IMG/VR virus record: IMGVR_UViG_640753059_000001
DNA: 64,000 bases
Source: a virus
Lineage: Duplodnaviria > Caudoviricetes
Reading direction: 5' to 3' (one strand)
The position numbers were made by a program, and so were the translations under genes. The notes under the pieces were generated by a model, which was not told where the DNA came from, ran no database searches, and saw nothing but the letters and a program-made list of their open reading frames with translations. Below, piece after piece: positions 24,661-40,629 of the stretch. Every line of letters begins with the position of its first letter. Within the stretch, counting starts at the first letter, position 1.

Positions 24661-24823
24661 GAGCGCAGCCAAAGCTATCGAGGACGCATGGCGCCTTCTG
24701 GAGCGCGGCGAGAAGCTGAAGAAGTCAGCGAAGGACTACCTCGGGCCTCGTGTCGTTGATGGCATCCGCTATCTGGAGACTGGCGCGAGGAACATGCGGA
24801 CAAAGCAAGGGCGCTCAGAATGA
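24638..24823 (+). CDS. Hypothetical small protein
   Basis: GGAGG RBS; coupled to neighbours. Confidence 0.5.
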   Translation: MPTPQELESAAKAIEDAWRLLERGEKLKKSAKDYLGPRVVDGIRYLETGARNMRTKQGRSE

Positions 24824-26169
24824 ATGCGCATATCCTCACCGGCGGCGAGGTCACCACCGGCCGGCGGAAGCCGTCGGACCTGGTGGCCGAGTACGAGATG
24901 AAGGTGGCCAGCGTGCCGGCGGCTCTGGCCGAGTTCAACGCCGCACGGGACGCCGTGAAGATGGCGGCGACGGTCGGCGGCGAGTGGGGGCACCGCACGC
25001 TGGACACCGGGCGGCTGGACGAGCGGGACATGGTGGCGAGTTTGCTCGGCTCGGCGTGGCGCCACTGCTACCGGCTGTATGCGCTGGAGAACTTCGCATC
25101 GGCGGCCGACAAGAAGCGCATCGAGCAGATGTTCGCGGCCCCGCCGCCATTCACCGTTGAGAACATCCGCGAGCACTTCGGCGCCTACATCAAGGACCCC
25201 TGGGGATCGATCCTGCGGGGGCTGGCCGAGCAATTCGCGGACCTGGACCCTGCGTTCAAGTCCCACGAGAAGATGAAGATCGGGGTCAAGGGCCTGCCGA
25301 AGCGGGTCATCCTGCACGGCTTCAACGGCTATTCCTCGTGCTACGGGATGGAGCGGACACGCGACATCGTCAACGCGCTGGCGGCCTATCAGGGCAAACC
25401 GCTCCTCACCTGGCCGGAACTGGCGTTGCTGGAGAAGAACGGCGATGCGCTGAACGCCGGGGGGACATTCCCAAGCCCCTTCAACGGCCGCCATGACGAT
25501 AAGACCATCGACGTGATCGGCCGCGGCGTCTGGCTGAAGCGCTTCAAGAACGGACGCGGGCACCTGTTCTTCGGCCCCGAGGCTCTACGCGACGTGAACC
25601 GCGCGCTGGCGGAGTTCTACGGGGAGGTCCTTCCGGATGCGGCGGAGGAGCGCCCCGCCACCCCACGCGCCAGCACCGCGGTGGCGAAGGACCTGCAGTA
25701 TTATCCGACGCCGGCGACGGTGGTGGAGCGGGTGCTGGGCGACCTATACGTCAAGCCCGGCGACCGGGTTCTTGAGCCATCCTGCGGCTGCGGACGGTTC
25801 ATGGACGCGCTGCGTGCACGCGGCGCCCGCGCGCTCGGGATTGAGGTGGACCCAGGCCGGGCGGCGCAATGCCGGGCGCGTGGCCACAGCGTGCTCACGG
25901 CCAATTTTCTTGAGACCGAACCGACCGGCGACTTCGACCACGTGGTGATGAACCCGCCCTTCTACGGGCGGCACTATGCGAAGCACGTCGAGCACGCTCT
26001 CCGCTTCCTGAAGCCGGGCGGCTGGCTCACCGCCATCCTTCCTGCGACGGCCCGCTATGACCACGGGCTGCTCGAGGGCCGGTGGGACGACCTCCCGGTG
26101 GGCTCGTTCTCCGAGAGCGGCACCAACATCAACACGACCGTGCTGACCATTTGGCGGGGGCGGGAATGA
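24820..26169 (+). CDS. DUF4942 + amino (N6-adenine type) DNA methyltransferase
   Basis: FKNGRGHLFF; YYPTP, VLEPSCGCG, MNPPF motifs. Confidence 0.85.
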   Translation: MNAHILTGGEVTTGRRKPSDLVAEYEMKVASVPAALAEFNAARDAVKMAATVGGEWGHRTLDTGRLDERDMVASLLGSAWRHCYRLYALENFASAADKKRIEQMFAAPPPFTVENIREHFGAYIKDPWGSILRGLAEQFADLDPAFKSHEKMKIGVKGLPKRVILHGFNGYSSCYGMERTRDIVNALAAYQGKPLLTWPELALLEKNGDALNAGGTFPSPFNGRHDDKTIDVIGRGVWLKRFKNGRGHLFFGPEALRDVNRALAEFYGEVLPDAAEERPATPRASTAVAKDLQYYPTPATVVERVLGDLYVKPGDRVLEPSCGCGRFMDALRARGARALGIEVDPGRAAQCRARGHSVLTANFLETEPTGDFDHVVMNPPFYGRHYAKHVEHALRFLKPGGWLTAILPATARYDHGLLEGRWDDLPVGSFSESGTNINTTVLTIWRGRE

Positions 26170-26381
26170 ACCGATCGAAACGCCCCGGTCCCCGCCACCT
26201 CTGCCCGGTCTGCGGCAGCGCCGCCGTGCACCCTCGCGGCCGTGACTTCGCCTGCGGCAGATGCGGCCACGCGGCCCGCAAGTTCCCACTCTCCACTGAT
26301 CCTGTCCCGGCCATTGAGGAATGGGACAGCCGCCCTCGCTGCGCCGGTCAGGTGCTGCCGGTCCGGAGCAACGACGAATGA
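26166..26381 (+). CDS. Small Zn-ribbon (Lar-like) protein
   Basis: CPVCG...CGRCG; ATGA coupling at both ends. Confidence 0.55.
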   Translation: MNRSKRPGPRHLCPVCGSAAVHPRGRDFACGRCGHAARKFPLSTDPVPAIEEWDSRPRCAGQVLPVRSNDE

Positions 26382-28117
26382 AAACGCCCTTCCTGCTCGA
26401 CAACCGCATCACGGTCGTCCTGTTCGCCGGCATGGGCGGCGGGTGCGATGGGCTGGAGGAGGCCGGCTTCCACGTTCATGTTGCGATCAACCATGACCCG
26501 GTGGCTGTGGCGGTTCACGAGCGCCGGCACCCTCACACCAAGCATCTACGTTGTGACGTGTTCGAAGCGGACCCACGGGAGGTTTGCCGCGGGCGCGGCG
26601 TGCGCGCGCTCCACGCATCTCCCGACTGCACCCACTTTTCGGTGGCCAAGGGCAGCAAGCCCGTCTCGTCGAGGCGCCGGTCTCTCGCATGGGTGATCTG
26701 TCGGTGGGCGGGCACGGTGCGCCCTGAGACGATCACCCTGGAGAACGTGCAGGAGATCACCACCTGGTGTCCGCTGATCGCGAAGCGCGACCCCGCGACC
26801 GGCCGGGTGCTTCGGCTGGATGGCACGGTGGCGGCCAAGGGCGAGCGGGTGCCGGTGCAGGAGCAATGGCTCATCCCGGATCCGAAGCACAAGGGGCGCA
26901 TCTGGCGCGCCTGGCTGAAGCACCTGCGTGGGCTCGGCTACAGCTTTGAACACCGCGTGCTGGTCTGCGCTGACTATGGCGTGCCCACGATCCGGAAGCG
27001 GCTCTTCGGTGTCGCCCAGGCCGACGGCCGACCGATCGTCTGGCCGGCGCGCACCCACGCGCCGCGCAAGGATGCCAAGCGGCTGGGCCTGAAGCCTTGG
27101 GTCGGCGCCCACACCATCATCGACTGGTCGCTGCCGGTGAAGAGCATCTTCGACCGGGCCAAGGCCCTGGCGGATGCCAGCCACCGGCGGATCGCGCATG
27201 GCGTCGTTCGGCACGTCCTGGAGGCGGTCCAACCGTTCATCGTGCCGATTACCCACACGCAGGGCGGCAACAGCGCCCGCTCCACCTCCGAGCCTCTGTG
27301 CACCATCACCACGGCCAAGGGCGGCGAGAACATGGTGGCAGTCCCCACCCTGATCCAGAGCGGCTACGGCGAGCGGGAGGGACAGGCGCCGCGCGTCCTG
27401 GACCTGATGGAGCCTGCCGCCACGCAGGTGGGTGGCAGCAAGGCGGCGCTGGTTGCGGCGTTCCTCGCTCAACACAACGCAGGCCCCCGGCCCGGGGCTC
27501 CGGCGCGCGCTGCGATAGAGCCCGTCTCGACGATCACCACCACTGGCGCGCAGCAGTCCATCGCCGCCATCAGCCTCATGCGCCAGTTCGGGACCGGCCT
27601 TTCACGCGACGCCCGAGAGCCAGTGCCAACCATCACGGTAGAGGGGCAGACCAAGACCGGCTTGGTGGCGGCCACGCTGGGCGAGATGCGCGGGCGAAGC
27701 CGTGGTGGGCGGGACGTCCGCGAGCCGCTCGCGGCGGTCTCGGCCAAAAGCCACGCCCACCTGATCTTGCCCTTCCTTCAGCACTACTACAGTAACGGGA
27801 AGACCGATGACGACGTGCAGAGCCCGCTGGGCGCGCTCACCAGCAAGGCTCGATACGGCATCGTCGAGGTCAAGGTGCGCGGCGAGACCTTCATCATCGA
27901 CGACATCGGCACACGCATGCTGGAGCCGGAGGAGGGGGCCGCAGCCCACGGCTTCAAGCCCGGCGCCCTCCCAGACGAGGTCACCGTCGACGGCGAGACC
28001 CGCCGCCTGACGAAGACCCAGAAATATCACCTCGTCGGCAACAGCGTGCCGCCGCGAATGATCCAGTTGCTCGCCGAATGCAACGTGCGGCGTGCCTTAG
28101 CAGAGGCCGCAGAGTGA
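26378..28117 (+). CDS. DNA (cytosine-5) methyltransferase with an expanded variable region
   Basis: FAGMGG, SPDCTHFS, ENV, R.RLF, GNSV motifs. Confidence 0.92.
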   Translation: MKTPFLLDNRITVVLFAGMGGGCDGLEEAGFHVHVAINHDPVAVAVHERRHPHTKHLRCDVFEADPREVCRGRGVRALHASPDCTHFSVAKGSKPVSSRRRSLAWVICRWAGTVRPETITLENVQEITTWCPLIAKRDPATGRVLRLDGTVAAKGERVPVQEQWLIPDPKHKGRIWRAWLKHLRGLGYSFEHRVLVCADYGVPTIRKRLFGVAQADGRPIVWPARTHAPRKDAKRLGLKPWVGAHTIIDWSLPVKSIFDRAKALADASHRRIAHGVVRHVLEAVQPFIVPITHTQGGNSARSTSEPLCTITTAKGGENMVAVPTLIQSGYGEREGQAPRVLDLMEPAATQVGGSKAALVAAFLAQHNAGPRPGAPARAAIEPVSTITTTGAQQSIAAISLMRQFGTGLSRDAREPVPTITVEGQTKTGLVAATLGEMRGRSRGGRDVREPLAAVSAKSHAHLILPFLQHYYSNGKTDDDVQSPLGALTSKARYGIVEVKVRGETFIIDDIGTRMLEPEEGAAAHGFKPGALPDEVTVDGETRRLTKTQKYHLVGNSVPPRMIQLLAECNVRRALAEAAE

Positions 28118-32186: not shown

Positions 32187-32804
32187 GTGACCGAGAAGCG
32201 AAAGACGGATTGGGAGGCGATCGAGCGCGAATACCGCGCGGGCCAGCATTCCATCCGCGAAATTGCCAAGAAACACGGCGTCAGCGATACCGCCATTCGC
32301 AAGGAGGCCAAGGCCAAGGGCTGGGAACGGGCCCTTGCCGATCAGGTCCGCAAGGCAGTTCGCGAGAAGCTGGTTCGCAGTGATGGTTCGCAGTCAGGTT
32401 CGCACCCTCAACGTGCGAACGACCGGGAGATCATCGAAGGGGCTTCGCTCCTCGGTTTCGAGGTCGTCCAGTCGCACCGGCGCGATATCTCGCAGCTCAC
32501 CGCCATCTCCAACATCCTCGCCACGAGGCTCGCAGCGGTCCTGAACAGCGACCCTGTGGAAGGCCGTTGCCTTGGTGACAAGGAAAGCCCCGGCGACCTT
32601 CTGGAGAAGCTGACGCGGGTTCGTGCGCGGCTGATCCCCCTGGAGCGGCAGGCCTACAACCTTGACGCCGAGGAGCGCGACCCCAGCGACCCTGATAGCC
32701 ATGACGGTTCCGCAATCGACCTTCTCGCTCGCCGCCTCGATCGCATCGCTTCCCGTAGCGGAGAGGGCCCGGGTTCTGGCGGGACTGACGAAGAAGCAGG
32801 CTGA
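32187..32804 (+). CDS. terS: Terminase small subunit
   Basis: DWEAIEREYRAG..SIREIAKKHGVSDTAIRK HTH; upstream of terL. Confidence 0.8.
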   Translation: MTEKRKTDWEAIEREYRAGQHSIREIAKKHGVSDTAIRKEAKAKGWERALADQVRKAVREKLVRSDGSQSGSHPQRANDREIIEGASLLGFEVVQSHRRDISQLTAISNILATRLAAVLNSDPVEGRCLGDKESPGDLLEKLTRVRARLIPLERQAYNLDAEERDPSDPDSHDGSAIDLLARRLDRIASRSGEGPGSGGTDEEAG

Positions 32805-34041
32805 ACAGCTCCTTTGGGACTGGAAGTTCTGGGCACGGCCCAATCAGCTGCCGCCGCCAGGGGACTGGCTCACGTGGCTCATCCTCGCTGGGCGGGGATA
32901 TGGCAAGACCCGCACTGGGGCCGAGTGGGTTCGCTCCGTCGTTTGCGGGGCAACACCGCTATCGCGGGGCATCCTGGGGCGGATTGCCCTTGTGGCCGAG
33001 ACCGCTGCCGATGCCCGCGACGTGATGGTCGAAGGCGAGAGCGGCATTCTCTCGGTGCATCCGAAAGCCTTCAGGCCGCTCTATGAGCCGTCGAAGCGGC
33101 GTCTGACTTGGCCGAATGGCGCCGTGGCGACGCTCTACAATGCGGTTGAGCCTGATCAGCTTCGTGGGCCGCAGCACGATGGCGCCTGGTGCGACGAGCT
33201 TGCGAAATGGCGTTACGCGGGCGAGACGTGGGATCAGCTGCAGTTCGGTCTGCGCCTCGGCGACAAGCCCCGCCAAGTGGTGACGACGACGCCCCGGCCG
33301 ATCCCGGTGCTGAAGCAGATCATCGCGGCTGGAACGAGCCGGGTCACGCGCGGATCGACCCATGAAAACCGGGCGAACCTCGCCTCCACCTTCCTCGCGG
33401 AAGTGGTGAAAAAATACGAGGGCACCAGACTCGGAAGGCAGGAACTGAACGCCGAGATCCTCGACGATGTGCCTGGCGCGCTTTGGACGCGGGACATGCT
33501 GGATATGTCGAGGGTCGGGTTTCCTCCCGATCTGGTCCGGGTCGTCGTCGCCGTTGACCCATCTGGCACCAAGGGCGCCGAGGACGACGGCGACGCCATC
33601 GGAATCGTCGCCGCTGGCTGCGGGGTGGATGGACGGGCCTACTTGCTTGAAGACGCGAGTTGCAAGCTGCCGCCTGCCGGCTGGGGCCGCCGAGCCATCG
33701 AAGTTTTCAAGAGATGGGACGCCGATCGTCTGATCGCCGAGCGCAATTTCGGCGGCGCCATGGTGGAGCACGTCATCAGGTCCATCGACCCCGACGTCTC
33801 GTTTCGAGAAGTGACCGCGAGCCGCGGGAAGGTGGCGCGCGCGGAGCCGATCGCCGCTCTTTACGAGCAGAAGAAGGTGTCCCACGTCGGGTCGTTCCCT
33901 GATCTGGAAGACCAGATGTGCTCGTTCACCCCGAGTGGATACATCGGCGCGGGTTCGCCGGATCGAGCTGATGCGGCGGTGTGGGCGCTCACCGAATTGA
34001 TGCTCGGGCCGTCCCCCTTCACCTGGTTCGTCGGAAACTGA
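32701..34041 (+). CDS. terL: Terminase large subunit
   Basis: AGRGYGKT Walker A, WCDE Walker B, TTTP, VAVDP and DRADA nuclease motifs. Confidence 0.95.
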   Translation: MTVPQSTFSLAASIASLPVAERARVLAGLTKKQAEQLLWDWKFWARPNQLPPPGDWLTWLILAGRGYGKTRTGAEWVRSVVCGATPLSRGILGRIALVAETAADARDVMVEGESGILSVHPKAFRPLYEPSKRRLTWPNGAVATLYNAVEPDQLRGPQHDGAWCDELAKWRYAGETWDQLQFGLRLGDKPRQVVTTTPRPIPVLKQIIAAGTSRVTRGSTHENRANLASTFLAEVVKKYEGTRLGRQELNAEILDDVPGALWTRDMLDMSRVGFPPDLVRVVVAVDPSGTKGAEDDGDAIGIVAAGCGVDGRAYLLEDASCKLPPAGWGRRAIEVFKRWDADRLIAERNFGGAMVEHVIRSIDPDVSFREVTASRGKVARAEPIAALYEQKKVSHVGSFPDLEDQMCSFTPSGYIGAGSPDRADAAVWALTELMLGPSPFTWFVGN

Positions 34042-34052
34042 AGGGCCACTAC

Positions 34053-35486
34053 ATGGCATCCTGGTGGCCCTTCGGCCGGCGTTCGCAAACCAAGGCGAGC
34101 GCCGCCGGCTCGGTGATTTCGGCGTGGAATGTCGGCCAGCCCGTCTGGACTGATCGCCGCTACGACCGGATCGCCGATGAGGCCTATGTCAGGAACGCGG
34201 TCGCGCACCGCTGCGTGAAGATGATCGCCTCCGCCGCCGCGACGATCCCCTGGCTCCTGGCGGACACCAAGGGGCGGGAGGTGGAGGAAAGCCCCCTTCT
34301 CGACCTGCTCAGGCGCCCGGCGCCCGGCATCGGCGGGCATTCGCTGTTCGAGGCGTTCTACGCCTACCTGCTGCTCGCCGGGAACACCTACCTCGAGGCG
34401 GTCGCTCCCGCCGACGGCAAACCGCCGCGCGAGCTTTGGACGCTCCGCCCTGATCGGACACGGGTGATCCCCGGCGCCTATGGCCGCCCGGAGGCCTACG
34501 AATACGAGGCCAACGGCCAGAAGATGACGTGGCAGGTGGACCCGCTGACCGGAGAGGGCCCGATCCTGCATCTGAAGGAGTTCCACCCGATCAACGACTG
34601 GTATGGCCTGTCGCGGGTGGACCCGGCCGCCTATGCGGTGGACCGCCATAACGCCGCGAGCGCCCACAACATGGCGCTCCTGCAGAACGGCGCCCGGCCG
34701 AGCGGTGCGCTGATCTTCAAGCCGGTGGTGGTGAACGGCTCGGCACAGTCCGCGCCCAAGGAGGCGGTGGAGGCGGCCGAGGCGAGGCTGAAGGAGCGAC
34801 ATGGCGGCTTCGAGAACGCCGGCCGGCCCATGGTGCTGGGCGGGAACGTAGACTGGCAGGAAATGGGGATCACGCCCAAGGACATGGACTTCGGCGCCGG
34901 CAAGGACGATGCGGCGCGGGACATCTGCACCGCCTTTGGGGTGCCCCACATCCTGATCGTGCCGGGGGCGAGCACCTACAACAACGTCCGCGAGGCAACT
35001 TTGGGCCTCTACGAGGACACGGTCCTGCCCCTGGTGGACAAGGCCGTGGACGCGCTCGATGCCTGGCTCACCCCGCGGTTCGACGACCGCCTGCGTCTCG
35101 GCGTGGACCTCGACGAGGTGCCGGCGCTGGAGCCTCGGCGAGAGTCGAAGCGGAAGGCGACAATCGAACTGTTTGAGAAGCGCCTCATCACCCGCGACGA
35201 GGCGCGGGACGCGCTGCAATACGAGCCGCTCCCAGACGCCACGCAGTTCGACCCCGACGCGCAAGTGCTCTCTGCCCTCGTTGACGCCTACACGAAGGAC
35301 GCGCTGCCGATCGAGATGCTCTGGCGCTATGCCAGATCCATCGGCCTGAGCGTCCAGACGGACGAGGAGCTTCTCGCCGCCCTCACGGCTGAGCGCGATC
35401 TGCGCGCCGCCGAGGAAGCCGGCGCGTCCTTGGGCGACACCGGGCAACCGGCGGCCGATACCCAGGCCGATCCGGCCGCTCCCTGA
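34053..35486 (+). CDS. HK97-family portal protein with a C-terminal extension
   Basis: LLAGNTY, ILHLK..YGLS, NGARPSG, ICTAFGVP, TYNN. Confidence 0.93.
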   Translation: MASWWPFGRRSQTKASAAGSVISAWNVGQPVWTDRRYDRIADEAYVRNAVAHRCVKMIASAAATIPWLLADTKGREVEESPLLDLLRRPAPGIGGHSLFEAFYAYLLLAGNTYLEAVAPADGKPPRELWTLRPDRTRVIPGAYGRPEAYEYEANGQKMTWQVDPLTGEGPILHLKEFHPINDWYGLSRVDPAAYAVDRHNAASAHNMALLQNGARPSGALIFKPVVVNGSAQSAPKEAVEAAEARLKERHGGFENAGRPMVLGGNVDWQEMGITPKDMDFGAGKDDAARDICTAFGVPHILIVPGASTYNNVREATLGLYEDTVLPLVDKAVDALDAWLTPRFDDRLRLGVDLDEVPALEPRRESKRKATIELFEKRLITRDEARDALQYEPLPDATQFDPDAQVLSALVDAYTKDALPIEMLWRYARSIGLSVQTDEELLAALTAERDLRAAEEAGASLGDTGQPAADTQADPAAP

Positions 35487-37357
35487 TGGCGAAGCCGACC
35501 AAGAAGTACCTGCTCGAGCTGGTGGCGCAGCACGGGCCCGAGATCGCAAAGGCGTTCAAGGCATCCATCACGTCGATCAAGGGCTCGGCGCAGGTCGGCG
35601 CCCTGACCACGATGTTGGAGAAGGGAGACATCAACGGCGCCCTGCTGGCCATCGGTCTCGATCCGGCGGCGTTCCGGAAGCTGGACCAGTCGATTTCCGA
35701 TGCCTTTGAGGATGGGGGTGGGAAGACGGCCCAGACCATCCCGCCGGTGAAAACCCCGGACGGGCTGCGCATGGTGGTGCAGTTCAATGCCCGGAACGAC
35801 CGCGCCGAGCAGTGGCTGAAGGACCAATCCTCGACGTTGATCCGCGAGATCATTGAAGACCAGCGGCAGGTGATCCGGGCCGTTCTCGCCGACGGCATGG
35901 CCCGCGGGCTTAACCCGCGCGACGTTGCCCTGGACCTGGTCGGGCGTCTCGACCCCGTGACGAGGACGCGCCAGGGCGGCGTGATCGGGCTGACCTCACA
36001 GCAACTGGATTATGTCCAGCGCTACCGGTCCGAACTGCTTTCCGGAGATCCGGCCCAGCTTCGCAAAGCGCTGGCGCGGGTGCGGCGCGACCGCAAGTTC
36101 GACGGTGCGATCCGCAAGGCCATCGCCGCCGGCAAGCCGATCGACGCCGCCGCGGCGGAGAAGATGGTCGGCCGATATTCCGACCGGCTGCTGCTCCTGC
36201 GCGGCGAGACCATCGGCCGGACCGAGGCAATGACGGCCCTGCACCAGTCGCAGGAGGAGGCATACCAGCAGGCGATCGACAAGGGAGCCCTGCAGAGCAA
36301 CCACGTCCGCTATTTCTGGCGAACGGCGGCGGACGAGCGGGTGCGCCACTCGCACGCGATGATCCCCGGCATGAACGAGAAGGGGGCACCGCACGGCACG
36401 CCGTTCTCGTCCCCGCTGGGCCCGATCCGCTTTCCCGGCGATCCCAACGCCTCTGCGGCCAACAGGATCGGATGCCGCTGCTGGCGCGAGGCAAAGGTTG
36501 ACTTCCTCGCCCAGGCCGTGGAGGCAGAGCAGAAGCCGAAGCCAGCACCTAAGCCGAAGGCGCCGCCCAAACCGAAGAAGCCGCTGCCACCGGAACCGGT
36601 CCTGCTGCCTCAGCGCTATGGCCCGGACGGGGCGGCGTGGCCCCGTGTGCCGTCGGAACTTGCAGATCGCGTCGCTGATGAACTGCTCACTCCGACCCAT
36701 CCGGCTTGGCGCAAGGAGATCGAGACCATCCTCAAGAGTGCGCCCGCGCCGTACAAGCGGCTTTCGATTGGGCAGGCTGGGCTCATCAACTGGTACACCG
36801 GCAGTGGCTACCGCCGGCTGAACAAGGATCTGCGGGAAGGGACGGGGAATTGGCTCACCCCGATGATCTCCGATGCGCTGAATGGCGCGCTGGACGCCGT
36901 CACCCGGAAGGCAACCGGCCTCGTGACCAGAGGTCTCAACGTCTACAGCGATGCCGAAATCACGTCGACCTATGCTGTCGGCGCCGCTGTCGAGTTCCCG
37001 GCCTTCACGTCGACGGGCCGAGGGTTTTCCTTCGGTGGCAATGTCCGGATGATCATCGATGGATCGTCCGGCGTGGACGTGAAGCCCCTGTCTCGCTTTC
37101 GTAATGAGAACGAGGTGTTGTTCAAGGCGGGCACGCGGTTTATCGTGACCGGCATGGCAAAGCGCGGGAACGTCTACGAGATCACGCTCAAGGAGGTCGC
37201 GGACGACAAAAAGTCCGACGATCGCGTCATGCTGGGCGGAGGGTTCTCGGACGAGGCGAAGCGGATCTTCGATCAGTGGCGTGAGCCGCAATCGGACGCG
37301 GAACACCGACTGGCGGACAAGATGCAGTCTGGTGGCGCCGGGCGGCGCATTCGCTGA
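35486..37357 (+). CDS. MuF-like head morphogenesis protein fused to an ADP-ribosyltransferase domain
   Basis: IGRTE, W.TAADERVRHSH, PGDP..IGCRC; KP-rich linker; YTGSGYRRLN..LR, TRG, FTST, ENEVL. Confidence 0.88.
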   Translation: MAKPTKKYLLELVAQHGPEIAKAFKASITSIKGSAQVGALTTMLEKGDINGALLAIGLDPAAFRKLDQSISDAFEDGGGKTAQTIPPVKTPDGLRMVVQFNARNDRAEQWLKDQSSTLIREIIEDQRQVIRAVLADGMARGLNPRDVALDLVGRLDPVTRTRQGGVIGLTSQQLDYVQRYRSELLSGDPAQLRKALARVRRDRKFDGAIRKAIAAGKPIDAAAAEKMVGRYSDRLLLLRGETIGRTEAMTALHQSQEEAYQQAIDKGALQSNHVRYFWRTAADERVRHSHAMIPGMNEKGAPHGTPFSSPLGPIRFPGDPNASAANRIGCRCWREAKVDFLAQAVEAEQKPKPAPKPKAPPKPKKPLPPEPVLLPQRYGPDGAAWPRVPSELADRVADELLTPTHPAWRKEIETILKSAPAPYKRLSIGQAGLINWYTGSGYRRLNKDLREGTGNWLTPMISDALNGALDAVTRKATGLVTRGLNVYSDAEITSTYAVGAAVEFPAFTSTGRGFSFGGNVRMIIDGSSGVDVKPLSRFRNENEVLFKAGTRFIVTGMAKRGNVYEITLKEVADDKKSDDRVMLGGGFSDEAKRIFDQWREPQSDAEHRLADKMQSGGAGRRIR

Positions 37358-37382
37358 CTGGACCGGAAATCGCTGAGAAATG

Positions 37383-37404
37383 GCCCGCTTCGGCGGGCTT
37401 TTTC
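37383..37404 (+). terminator. Intrinsic terminator after MuF-ART
   Basis: GCCCGC-TTCG-GCGGGC-TTTTT. Confidence 0.85.
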
Positions 37405-37419: not shown

Positions 37420-37899
37420 GTGGCTGACCAGAACCTCAGCTTCGCAGCCCAGGTCGATGCTTGGGCGAAAAAGGTGAAGACGCGTCAGGTTGCAGTCTTC
37501 CGCGAGAGCGCGCAACGGGTGATCGGCGACATGCAGACGCCGGAGGGCGCGGGTGGCCGGATGCCGGTCGACACGGGCTTCATGCGCGCCAGCCTTCAGG
37601 CGACGCTCGGCACCCCAGCATCGGGCACTCTGAAGCCCCCACTTGAGGGCGCCGTCCAGGCCTTCGATGCCGGGCAGGTTGCCCTGGTGATCGCGGGTGC
37701 TGAACTGGGCGATACGATCTATGCGACCTACGGCGCCGCCTATGCCCGCCGGTTGGAATATGGCTTCGTTGGGCAGGACAGCCTCGGGCGGACCTACAAT
37801 CAGGCCGGGAAAGCCTTCGTGCGCTCGGCGGCCCAGAAGTGGGGGCAGATCGTCGGCGAGGTGACCGGCGAGCTCAAGGCCCGCCTCGGTCAGTCCTGA
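37420..37899 (+). CDS. HK97 gp10-like neck/tail-completion protein
   Basis: MPVDTGFMRAS, YARRLEYG, FVRSAAQKW. Confidence 0.8.
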   Translation: MADQNLSFAAQVDAWAKKVKTRQVAVFRESAQRVIGDMQTPEGAGGRMPVDTGFMRASLQATLGTPASGTLKPPLEGAVQAFDAGQVALVIAGAELGDTIYATYGAAYARRLEYGFVGQDSLGRTYNQAGKAFVRSAAQKWGQIVGEVTGELKARLGQS

Positions 37900-38102
37900 T
37901 TTCGCACGCCGTCCAGTTTGTCGGTGCTCTCTTCCATCGCCTTGACGAGGCTGAGCTGGAGCATCACGAGCGCTCGCCGCGCCGTCGCGATGGCGGTGTT
38001 TCCGCGCGTGGTCTCCCCCGGAGCGTCCCCGAGGGCTTCAGCAGCGGCGACCAGACGGTCGTGAACCTCGGTGTCGCTGAGGGGGCGGTGTTTTCGTGCC
38101 AT
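37890..38102 (-). CDS. Small antisense hypothetical protein
   Basis: 70-aa amphipathic ORF filling the gap between the gp10-like and protease genes. Confidence 0.5.
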   Translation of the reverse strand: MARKHRPLSDTEVHDRLVAAAEALGDAPGETTRGNTAIATARRALVMLQLSLVKAMEESTDKLDGVRNQD

Positions 38103-38131: not shown

Positions 38132-39247
38132 ATGGGGGACCCCCGGACGCTCTATGTCAGCCGGCCCCTGCTGAACGGCGCGGAACTGATCGATTGGGCG
38201 AAGGGGCAGGGGTTTACCAAGACGGTCCCCGCCGACGATCTGCATGTGACCATCGCCTACAGCCGCGATCCCGTGGACTGGGCGGCAGCCGGTGACCACT
38301 TCGACCAGGTGCGGGCCCGGGCTGACGGGCCGCGTTCAGTGGAGCAACTCGGCGACAAGGGCGCGGTCGTGCTGCGGTTCGAGCATGCTGAACTCGCCCA
38401 GCGCTGGCAGGCCTTCCGCGACATTGGGGCGTCCTGGGACCACGACGGGTACCGCCCGCACGTGACGATCACCTACGACGCGGCGGGTGTCGACCTGAGC
38501 AAGGTCCAGCCGTTCAGCGGCGAGCTGGTCTTCGGACCCGAAGAGTTCGCGGAGATCGATGAGGATCGGGCCGACCGGGTCCGGGCGAGTGAGAAGGGGC
38601 GGCGCGCCATGGAGATCAAGAGCTTCGCTCTGGAACTGAAGGAGGTTGGCGACGCCGGCACCTTCACCGGCTACGGGGCAGCGTTCGGCAACGTCGACCA
38701 GGGGCGAGACCTCATCGCGCGCGGAGCCTTCGCGGATAGCCTGTCGGCGTGGCGTTCGAAGGGCAAGTTGCCCAAGCTCCTGTGGCAGCACGACGCGCGC
38801 AAGCCGATCGGCGTGTGGACCGAGATGCGCGAGGACGACTACGGGCTCTTCGTGAAGGGCCGGTTCACCGCCGGCGTGAAGCAGGCGGATGAGGCGTACG
38901 CGCTGCTCAAGGATGGTGCTCTGGATGGCCTTTCCATCGGCTACGCCACCATCGAGGACGAGATCGACCGGGCCGCAGGGATCCGGAAGCTGGTCAAGCT
39001 CGACCTGATGGAGGTCAGCCTGGTCACCTTCGCGATGAACCCGGCCGCCGGCGTCACCGGCGTGAAGGCGGGCCCGCCGCGCACCATTCGAGAATTCGAG
39101 GCCGGGCTTCGGGAGAAGTTCGGTTTCTCGCACGCCCAGGCGAAGTCGATCGCTTCGTCCGGGTTCAAGTCGCTGGAGCCTCGGGATGAGGACGGCGCGA
39201 TGAACGACCTGCTGCGGACCATCAAGGGCATCCGGGCCGGTCTCTGA
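38132..39247 (+). CDS. Acb1-like 2H phosphoesterase fused to an HK97 prohead protease
   Basis: LHVTIAYS and YRPHVTITY (two HxT motifs); from Met 38609: FTGYG.F, LLWQH, PIG.W, GLSIGY, EVSLVTFAMN. Confidence 0.88.
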   Translation: MGDPRTLYVSRPLLNGAELIDWAKGQGFTKTVPADDLHVTIAYSRDPVDWAAAGDHFDQVRARADGPRSVEQLGDKGAVVLRFEHAELAQRWQAFRDIGASWDHDGYRPHVTITYDAAGVDLSKVQPFSGELVFGPEEFAEIDEDRADRVRASEKGRRAMEIKSFALELKEVGDAGTFTGYGAAFGNVDQGRDLIARGAFADSLSAWRSKGKLPKLLWQHDARKPIGVWTEMREDDYGLFVKGRFTAGVKQADEAYALLKDGALDGLSIGYATIEDEIDRAAGIRKLVKLDLMEVSLVTFAMNPAAGVTGVKAGPPRTIREFEAGLREKFGFSHAQAKSIASSGFKSLEPRDEDGAMNDLLRTIKGIRAGL

Positions 39248-39276: not shown

Positions 39277-40629
39277 ATGGCTGGTGAAAACGACGTGCTG
39301 GAGCAGATCCAGCGCGAGGTGAAGGGCTTTGGCGACAACGTCTCCGGGCTGAAGTCCTCGATGGAGAAGGACCTCGCCGACGTGCGCAAGCTCGCCGAGG
39401 AGGCGAAGAAGTCCGCCGATCGTCCGGAGGTGAAGGCGCAGATCGACGCGCTCACCACCTCCGTTTCCGAGAAGCACGCCGCGATCGAGAAGACCGTCGC
39501 CGAGCTGAAGGCCCAGGCCGACCAGGTCGCGACCGCCATGCGCCGGGCGCCCCTCGGCGATCCCAAGGAGCAGGGCGAGGAGCAGAAGCACGCCCTGGCC
39601 TATTTCGAGACCAAGGCGGCCGCCGCCGGCTCGCTGAAGGTGGGCAGCCCCATCGACCCGGCCGGCCTCGACATGGACGGCTATCGGGCGTGGACCAAGT
39701 CGTTCCCGCTCTACCTGCGCCGGGATGACAAGCCGATCGAGGCGAAGGCCCTCTCCGTGGGCTCCGACCCGAACGGCGGCTATCTCGTGCCGACCGCGAC
39801 CTCGGCGCGGATCCTGACCCGCATCTGGGAGACCTCCCCGCTGCGCCAGCTTTCGACCGTCGAGACGATCGGGACCGACAAGATCGAAATCCCGATCGAT
39901 GACGACGAGGCCTCGGCGGGCTGGGTCGGGGAGACCGAGGGCCGACCGGAGACCGGAACCCCGGCGATCGGCGTCCAGACGATCCCGGTCTTCGAGATCT
40001 ATGCGAAGCCCCGGGCGACGCAGTCGATGCTCGAGGATGCCTCGATCAACATCGAGGGATGGCTCGCCACCAAGATCTCGGACAAGTTCGCCCGGATCGA
40101 GGCCTCCGCCTTCATCGTCGGCAACGGGGTCAAGAAGCCCCGCGGCATCCTGACCTATCCGGCTGCGCCGGCCGGAACTTACGCGCGGGGCAAGATCCTG
40201 CAGGTGAACTCCGGTCATGCGACCAACATCACCGCCGACGGCCTCGTGAACATGACCTTCTCGCTGAAGGAGGCCTACCTCGCCAACGGGTCCTGGCTGA
40301 TGAAGCGTGGAACCGTAGGCTCGGTGGCGCTGCTCAAGGATGCTCAGGGCCAGTACCTGTGGCGCCCGGGGCTGGAGGCGGGCAAGCCGTCCATCCTGCT
40401 CGGCTATCCGGTGCGGCAGGCCGACGACATGCCGGTGGTGGGCGCCGGCGCGCTCCCGATCGCCTTCGGTGACTTCCGGGCCGGCTACACCGTCGTGGAC
40501 CGTCTCGGCATCACCACCCTGCGCGACCCCTACAGCGCCAAGCCGTTCGTGGAGTTCTACTCCCGCCGGCGCGTGGGCGGCGACGTGACGAACTTCGAGG
40601 CCTTCGCCCTCATGGTCGTGAGCGCCTGA
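39277..40629 (+). CDS. HK97-fold major capsid protein with delta domain
   Basis: Coiled-coil N-terminus, GGYLVP, AGWVGE, GNG..KPRG, FGDF, RRVGG. Confidence 0.95.
   Translation: MAGENDVLEQIQREVKGFGDNVSGLKSSMEKDLADVRKLAEEAKKSADRPEVKAQIDALTTSVSEKHAAIEKTVAELKAQADQVATAMRRAPLGDPKEQGEEQKHALAYFETKAAAAGSLKVGSPIDPAGLDMDGYRAWTKSFPLYLRRDDKPIEAKALSVGSDPNGGYLVPTATSARILTRIWETSPLRQLSTVETIGTDKIEIPIDDDEASAGWVGETEGRPETGTPAIGVQTIPVFEIYAKPRATQSMLEDASINIEGWLATKISDKFARIEASAFIVGNGVKKPRGILTYPAAPAGTYARGKILQVNSGHATNITADGLVNMTFSLKEAYLANGSWLMKRGTVGSVALLKDAQGQYLWRPGLEAGKPSILLGYPVRQADDMPVVGAGALPIAFGDFRAGYTVVDRLGITTLRDPYSAKPFVEFYSRRRVGGDVTNFEAFALMVVSA

Follow-up and report, generated by a model that had tools for sequence, protein, structure and literature searches.

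In the 64,000-nucleotide stretch of phage DNA analyzed here (IMG/VR virus record IMGVR_UViG_640753059_000001, hereafter the window), one gene at 38132–39247 (+) encodes a protein of 371 amino acids (aa), P0001, in which an Acb1-like 2H phosphodiesterase domain is joined through a linker to an S78 prohead protease. We put the probability at about 0.5 that this gene encodes a late-expressed enzyme directed against CBASS (antiphage systems that signal by cyclic oligonucleotides) and carried into the phage head. In the mechanism we propose, the protease half, by way of its conserved C-terminal tail, would take the nuclease into the procapsid, where the maturing protease may cut the linker (candidate site SEK155/G156) and then digest itself, leaving a free nuclease domain of ~17 kDa. 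The free nuclease would degrade alarm signals of the cyclic di- and trinucleotide type, 3′3′-cGAMP for example, first in the cell in which heads are being built, the stage at which CBASS fires, and any nuclease kept in the head would be ejected with the DNA, pre-arming the next infection. Unfused protease is probably supplied as well, from an internal start at M160 whose ribosome-binding motif is retained. Packaging, linker cleavage and ejection are steps that we infer; release by cleavage and packaging in the virion, both put forward in a preliminary description of this DNA, are plausible.

The Acb1-protease fusion is not an assembly error. Its frame (38132–39247, +) is free of stops over the 371 aa of its translation, and contigs from two unrelated metagenomes, one of soil and one of drinking water, span the domain junction (X3 covers 38466–38940 and X5 covers 38400–38761) with substitutions only, no indels and no stops. 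The preliminary description had named a stop between the two domains as one of the findings that would undo its reading; the contigs bridging the junction contain none. Four relatives with 95, 91, 89 and 78% identity, from Xanthobacter genomes and other assemblies, share this architecture, as do three further lineages at 42–49% identity. The longest version of the frame opens at GTG 38096, though ATG 38132 is favored as the start because the homologs are also 371 aa long and a GGAG lies 9 nucleotides (nt) upstream. A promoter scan upstream of the gene found no promoter, and a weak terminator-like hairpin lies at 38075–38090. A PHROGs search with P0001 matched the head maturation protease family phrog_80 (E 2.6e-58), the N-terminal part falling in an "RNA ligase" family, phrog_755. 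In an AlphaFold2 model built from a 71-row alignment (mean predicted local distance difference test score, pLDDT, 88.7; predicted template modeling score 0.52; both domains mostly >90), P0001 is predicted to be two independent bodies joined by a flexible, disordered tether. Judged from their sequences, both halves look catalytically intact.

The N-terminal domain (aa 5–148; 38144–38575, +; pLDDT mostly >90) belongs to the Acb1 family. It matches Pfam Acb1 (PF23474) at E 1.4e-40, with 138.8 bits against a cut-off of 27 and over model positions 1–143 of 144. The assignment of the first ~160 aa to an Acb1-like 2H phosphoesterase, first made from two HxT motifs in one open reading frame (ORF), is borne out by profile, catalytic tetrad and fold alike. 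LHVTIAYS, with its His codon at 38243, contains H38-V-T40 (38243–38251, +), which aligns with H44/T46 of T4 Acb1 and whose His is present in 198/198 family domains. YRPHVTITY, with its His codon at 38459, contains H110-V-T112 (38459–38467, +), the counterpart of T4 Acb1 H113/T115, with His in 196/198. Both motifs are kept in 194 of 197 related domains, whatever the fusion partner. A comparison of the fold with Acb1 and LigT, which had been suggested at the outset, ranks Acb1 first and LigT below it: in a Foldseek search of the PDB, Acb1 of phage FBB1 (7t26/7t27) takes ranks 1–2 (E 8.4e-9; target-normalized TM score 0.70), followed by the phosphodiesterase of Burkholderia phage BCSR5 (9q2y) and then LigT. 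Doherty (2025) groups the BCSR5 enzyme by structure with T4 Acb1, among the broad-spectrum enzymes. A PDB sequence search also retrieves Acb1 7t26, at E 1.3e-9.

The residues around the substrate pocket vary more. In T4 Acb1 the lid residue W147 stacks on a base and E141 contacts adenine. The lid column is Trp (TGG) in 161 of 198 relatives, in the closest homologs and in both metagenome contigs, whereas codon 146 of P0001 (38567–38569, +) is CGG; Arg at this position occurs in this genome only, against the Trp of its nearest relatives. Y8 of P0001 aligns with the conserved Y12 of T4 Acb1. F107 of T4 Acb1 aligns with H104 (a column of Y, F, H or W), W74 with E71 and E141 with A140, although the alignment of these loops is uncertain. 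The lack of conservation at the W74 and E141 equivalents, together with the Arg in place of the lid Trp, gives some room to the reading that the domain acts on a different substrate, as an RNA end-healing or 2′,3′-cyclic phosphodiesterase, as an RNase, or on 2′-5′ oligoadenylate or other immune nucleotides (type III CRISPR cA3, Panoptes-type decoys). The domain also has weaker Pfam matches to 2_5_RNA_ligase2 and LigT_PEase, such proteins are often named RNA ligase in databases, an RNase role was considered by Iyer et al. (2017), and viral 2H enzymes vary widely in their substrates, some of those in the panel of Doherty (2025) being narrow or substrate-less. We nevertheless regard a different substrate as quite improbable, since the domain reaches 138.8 bits with the Acb1 profile and 24.8 with that of the generic 2H family, the best-matching folds, Acb1 and 2H PDE-9, are both broad degraders of CBASS signals, an Acb2/Tad1-type sponge gene adjoins the fusion in two lineages, and an RNA ligase partner is absent from the window.

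The genomic setting is consistent with a role against cyclic-oligonucleotide signaling. The window is part of a siphovirus-like prophage in a 5.6 Mb Xanthobacter chromosome, and the same chromosome carries, ~3.5 Mb from the prophage, a CBASS operon (G000:C1:622263-626431, equivalent to L005 5263-9431) with genes for CapP, CapH, a CD-NTase (PADLOC cyclase, E 4e-189), an E2 protein and a patatin phospholipase effector. With this operon in its own host, the prophage confronts CBASS upon induction. A search of the host for SAVED domains gave no match, and control genomes gave no signal either. Genes for a ResIII-like helicase-nuclease, a ParB-N protein and a HipA-like kinase flank the operon, which may lie in a defense island. 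In two metagenomic phage contigs, a gene of the Acb2/Tad1-hairpin (sponge) family stands directly upstream of an Acb1-S78 fusion (L009:5730-5990, E 4e-15; L010:1713-1967, E 2e-17), a predicted anti-CBASS pair within the head module. Three independent lines, namely the Acb1 profile and fold, the CBASS operon of the host and the upstream Acb2/Tad1 genes, point to counter-defense against cyclic-oligonucleotide signaling.

The remainder of the ORF is an intact prohead protease of the HK97 type, as the preliminary description had recognized and as the Pfam match and the alignment with the catalytic residues of HK97 gp4 confirm. The Peptidase_S78 domain (aa 168–309; 38633–39058, +) matches PF04586 at E 1.3e-27, with 97.4 bits against a cut-off of 21. 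Its catalytic residues H220 (38789–38791) and S268 (38933–38935) align with H65/S114 of HK97 gp4 and are invariant in 18 relatives. Foldseek matches of this half are herpesvirus assemblins and proteases, and T4 gp21 (5jbl). Beyond the domain, a conserved C-terminal helical tail (aa 318–371; 39083–39244, +) can be aligned with the C-terminal part of HK97 gp4, and from what is known of gp4 we presume it to be the capsid-targeting part.

The two domains are separated by a charged linker (aa 149–167; 38576–38632, +), and aa 157–169 are predicted to be disordered (pLDDT <50). Within the linker, the SEK155/G156 bond is a suggestive candidate for cleavage by the protease, resembling the K103/S104 site of HK97 and the maturation site predicted at K157/A158 of the major capsid protein of this prophage, which aligns with HK97 K103/S104. 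The linker also contains a Shine-Dalgarno-like element, GAGAAGGGG (38591–38599, +), which encodes E154-K155-G156 and lies 9 nt before an in-frame ATG (38609–38611, +). This ATG is the internal Met at 38609 of the preliminary description, namely M160; it corresponds to the start codon of stand-alone protease relatives, and in the alignment a Met is preserved at this place in all fusion lineages. The closest protease relatives are stand-alone proteins of 213–230 aa with 60–67% identity, whose first residue corresponds to M160. In stand-alone protease genes (loci L006 and L007) a GAAGGGG lies 5–6 nt ahead of the ATG, and since this motif is retained in the linker here, the linker appears to be a translated former ribosome-binding region. 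Internal initiation at M160 is likely on these sequence features, and unfused protease is probably made from it in addition to the fusion.

How the fusion arose can be sketched from the same region. Between portal and protease genes, relatives with a stand-alone protease have an HNH gene in one case and an unknown 131-aa ORF in another, and an Acb1 module placed in this variable slot may have been read through into the protease gene. In trees, the S78 fusions fall in four places of the Acb1-domain tree and the protease tree needs three changes, yet approximately unbiased tests fail to reject a single fusion clade (p 0.74 and 0.25). Independent origins were therefore set aside, and we claim no recurrent selection.

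To place the fusion among its relatives, the Acb1 part was used in a search that returned 760 proteins of 204–650 aa, and precomputed Pfam architectures were taken for the best 120. Portals of three families are the partner in 74 of these (PF06381 in 57, PF04860 in 16 and a Mu-type portal in one) and three protease or protease-like families in 28 (Peptidase_S78_2 in 13; DUF2213, which in phiPSA1-like phages bears the annotation head maturation protease, in nine; Peptidase_S78 in six). Two are joined to an ADP-ribosyltransferase, three to other domains, and 13 have no second domain; tail, terminase or capsid-protein partners number zero among these 120. On every portal the Acb1 domain lies at the C-terminus, and on the proteases at the N-terminus. 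Short forms (<204 aa) number 89, against ~760 fused or longer forms. In an exhaustive search of 1.84 billion representatives of clusters at 50% identity, about four of the best 150 span both halves of P0001 (P0004, P0027, P0227 and P0229). Fifteen of the best 150 are proteins of 1,000–3,900 aa, and the giants checked are MuF fusions, portal fusions and LPD-domain polyvalent proteins (for example, P0260 is LPD5 + Acb1 + LPD1, P0247 is Acb1 + MuF and P0242 is portal + Acb1). Among 50,697 GenBank phage genomes, no record covers at least 80% of the Acb1-S78 fusion. A candidate from Edwardsiella phage vB_EpM_ZHS, ZHS_4 (L012:2116-2715), was rejected as a fusion, being a 199-aa Acb1-like protein with no protease domain; its name, "prohead protease", was probably carried over from fusion proteins. 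The early caution that Acb1-like domains also sit on portals was well placed, portals being the commonest partner, and the survey of domain architectures that had been recommended alongside it reveals the protease fusion to be a rare form of a wider habit.

This distribution bears on whether the fusion is anything but an accident of position, in which an Acb1 gene between portal and protease lost its stop and the product was tolerated, the linker being flexible or cut, with co-expression as the only consequence. Several observations suit such an accident: the slot is filled by unrelated genes in close relatives (the HNH gene and the 131-aa ORF), the linker looks like a translated former ribosome-binding region, the domain sits at the C-terminus of the product of the upstream gene (portal) and at the N-terminus of that of the downstream gene (protease), as fusion between neighbors predicts, a portal-borne domain stands directly before the protease gene in phages GBK2 and PSA-2T, and the Acb1-S78 form is rare (~4 of the best 150 50%-identity clusters). 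We still think it unlikely, because fused forms far outnumber short stand-alone ones in the subfamily (~760 vs 89), neighbor fusion does not apply where the domain sits in mid-protein (MuF fusions and polyvalent proteins), the fusion has been maintained at 78–95% identity and in the lineages at 42–49%, and the catalytic motifs are kept in 194/197 domains irrespective of partner.

The partners also bear on the claim that the phage tethers an antidote to the trigger of CBASS. One part of that claim stands: prohead proteases are CBASS triggers in the literature, where they are reported to cleave and activate CD-NTases (Hobbs and Kranzusch 2026 preprint) and CBASS escape mutations map to prohead protease genes (Richmond-Buccola 2023 preprint). 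Tethering to the trigger as such finds no specific support, with 74 of the 120 nearest relatives on portals. The shared operon already provides the co-timing once ascribed to tethering, and co-localization adds little for an enzyme acting on a diffusible small molecule. In its strict form, a trigger-coupled antidote would place one Acb1 with each active protease at the same time and place, and packaging would be irrelevant. The cleavage and activation of CD-NTases of clades A, D and G by prohead proteases, the escape mutations, the presence of Acb1 on three different protease or protease-like families (28/120), the CBASS operon of the host and the Acb2-type sponge gene adjoining two other fusions are all in keeping with such coupling. 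We doubt it all the same. Besides the portals, the remaining partners are MuF proteins, ADP-ribosyltransferases and polyvalent proteins, none of these classes being reported as protease-type triggers in the literature examined; a diffusible substrate leaves only a small kinetic gain from tethering, co-timing is already given, and the retained internal start suggests an unfused protease that would break a strict 1:1 ratio.

The feature common to the partners of the domain is their location in the procapsid interior, not a role as trigger. For this reason we favor the reading in which the Acb1 domain is capsid-targeted cargo that the protease releases. It fits the idea that MuF- and portal-borne 2H domains are packaged, enter the cell along with the DNA and degrade defense-related nucleotides there (Iyer, Burroughs, Anand, de Souza and Aravind 2017, PMC5512222), and it fits the MuF-ADP-ribosyltransferase encoded two genes upstream of the fusion.

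Several points weigh against this capsid-cargo reading. Position alone could account for fusion to the flanking portal and protease genes, although it leaves the MuF and polyvalent cases unexplained. For the likeness of the candidate cleavage site there are only two sites of comparison, one known and one predicted. CBASS fires late, so an early need for an ejected enzyme is not obvious, and a portal-fused domain would remain in the capsid unless it were cleaved off. With Arg146 in place of the lid Trp, the allele of this genome may be weakened, and with the base-contacting W74 and E141 not conserved in the subfamily, the substrate range cannot be read from the sequence. A bolder version of the cargo reading, which we offer only tentatively and consider improbable, is that the fusion is a purpose-built counter to protease-sensing CBASS, in which the nuclease rides the very enzyme that the CD-NTase detects, enters the procapsid together with that enzyme, which then frees it, and reaches the next cell by ejection. 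If this is true, the fusion would be a virion-delivered anti-CBASS enzyme, not described in the literature examined; it would shield the phage during head assembly and again as soon as the next infection begins, in some lineages in cooperation with an Acb2-type sponge encoded by the neighboring gene.

The fusion gene lies in the head operon of the prophage. The large terminase gene (32662–34041) is followed by a PF04860 portal protein without an Acb1 domain (33981–35486, +) and by a MuF head-morphogenesis protein fused to an ADP-ribosyltransferase (PF03496/PF01129, aa 424–574; 35486–37357, +), which probably represents another capsid-borne effector; after this gene comes a terminator-like hairpin at 37382–37399. 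Next comes a Neck1/HK97 gp10-like connector (37420–37899, +; phrog_169, E 1.7e-32); this 159-aa ORF upstream of the fusion had been a candidate sponge, which its match to the connector family ruled out. A 70-aa ORF on the opposite strand (37890–38102, −) matches phrog_20321, a family of unassigned function, and is moron-like within the head operon. Directly downstream of the fusion is the gene of a major capsid protein of the HK97 fold (39277–40629, +; PF05065, E 3.3e-87), whose N-terminal delta region is long and predicted to be cleavable. Elsewhere the prophage encodes an anti-repressor, methyltransferases, a replication initiator, a tape measure protein and tail protein J. Two large DNA methyltransferase genes occupy 24820–28117 in the early region and are probably anti-restriction functions.

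According to two recent preprints, CBASS is triggered at head assembly. The fusion of a signal-destroying enzyme to the protease offers a simple experimental handle on whether protease sensing extends beyond E. coli phages, on whether the antidote is needed in cis and on whether virions carry anti-CBASS enzymes. One Acb1-type module on portals, three protease or protease-like families, MuF and polyvalent proteins, with an Acb2-type sponge gene beside it in two lineages, also marks the portal-protease junction of tailed phages as a place to search for counter-defense genes. The same pattern accounts for some database names that mislead, for instance "RNA ligase", or "prohead protease" where the protein is a plain Acb1-like one.

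Much of the background to these findings is already published, including the Acb1 family, 2H fusions to portal and MuF proteins, and protease-triggered CBASS. Of the protease fusion itself there are only database architectures and a single row in a supplementary table, and we found no discussion of it in the literature examined: an Acb1-protease fusion goes unmentioned in Hobbs 2022, in Hobbs and Kranzusch 2026 and in the 2025–26 reviews, and a prohead-protease fusion in PMC5512222, where 'prohead' occurs only in the reference list. The table row belongs to Doherty et al. (2025), who note that some 2H enzymes carry extra domains, "proteases" included, and whose Supplementary Table 2 lists Kharcho gp87 with a protease domain. 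New here are the junction rule, which puts the domain at the C-terminus of portals and at the N-terminus of proteases, the linker's apparent derivation from a ribosome-binding region and the likely internal start that goes with it, and the adjacent Acb2-type genes, the host CBASS operon and the Arg146 allele.

Among the closest known systems is gp87 of Arthrobacter phage Kharcho (L013:2918-4057), annotated 'RNA ligase', which has an N-terminal 2H domain, a C-terminal prohead protease and the gene order found here, downstream of portal gp84 and MuF gp85. Its 2H domain is LigT-like with no match to the Acb1 profile, its protease is S78_2 (XkdF) and not S78, and a pairwise comparison with P0001 gives a marginal match (E 0.001 and 23% identity for the best local alignment). 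The best structural match of the P0001 domain is Acb1 of T4 and FBB1 (gp57B; 7t26, 7t27; Hobbs et al. 2022), with which it shares PF23474, the 2H fold, the HxT/HxT tetrad and the equivalent of Y12. T4 Acb1 is a free protein of 152 aa, whereas the P0001 domain sits on a protease; identity is ~28–33%, the W74, E141 and lid positions differ, and the activity of P0001 is predicted. T4 acb1 (57B) directly adjoins ipI, which encodes an internal protein packaged in the head (L011:3592-4411).

Portals with a C-terminal Acb1-like domain of the same subfamily are found in cyanophage Pam3 (8hds), Rhizobium phage RHEph04 and relatives, Pseudomonas phage phiPSA1 and Geobacillus phage GBK2, and a sequence search of the PDB finds its best match in residues 468–612 of the Pam3 portal (E 2.3e-23). 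In phiPSA1/PSA-2T and GBK2 the domain occupies the same portal-protease junction of the genome as here. In those phages it ends the upstream portal gene, while here it begins the downstream protease gene and the portal of the prophage is without it. The MuF and portal polyvalent proteins of PMC5512222 also belong in this comparison, the same subfamily recurring in MuF fusions and LPD-domain giants, and P0001 differs from the multi-effector giants in having two domains. As for the protease half, HK97 gp4 is of the same family, with the same catalytic His and Ser, an alignable C-terminal part and a gene directly upstream of that of a delta-region capsid protein; unlike P0001, it carries no N-terminal extension.

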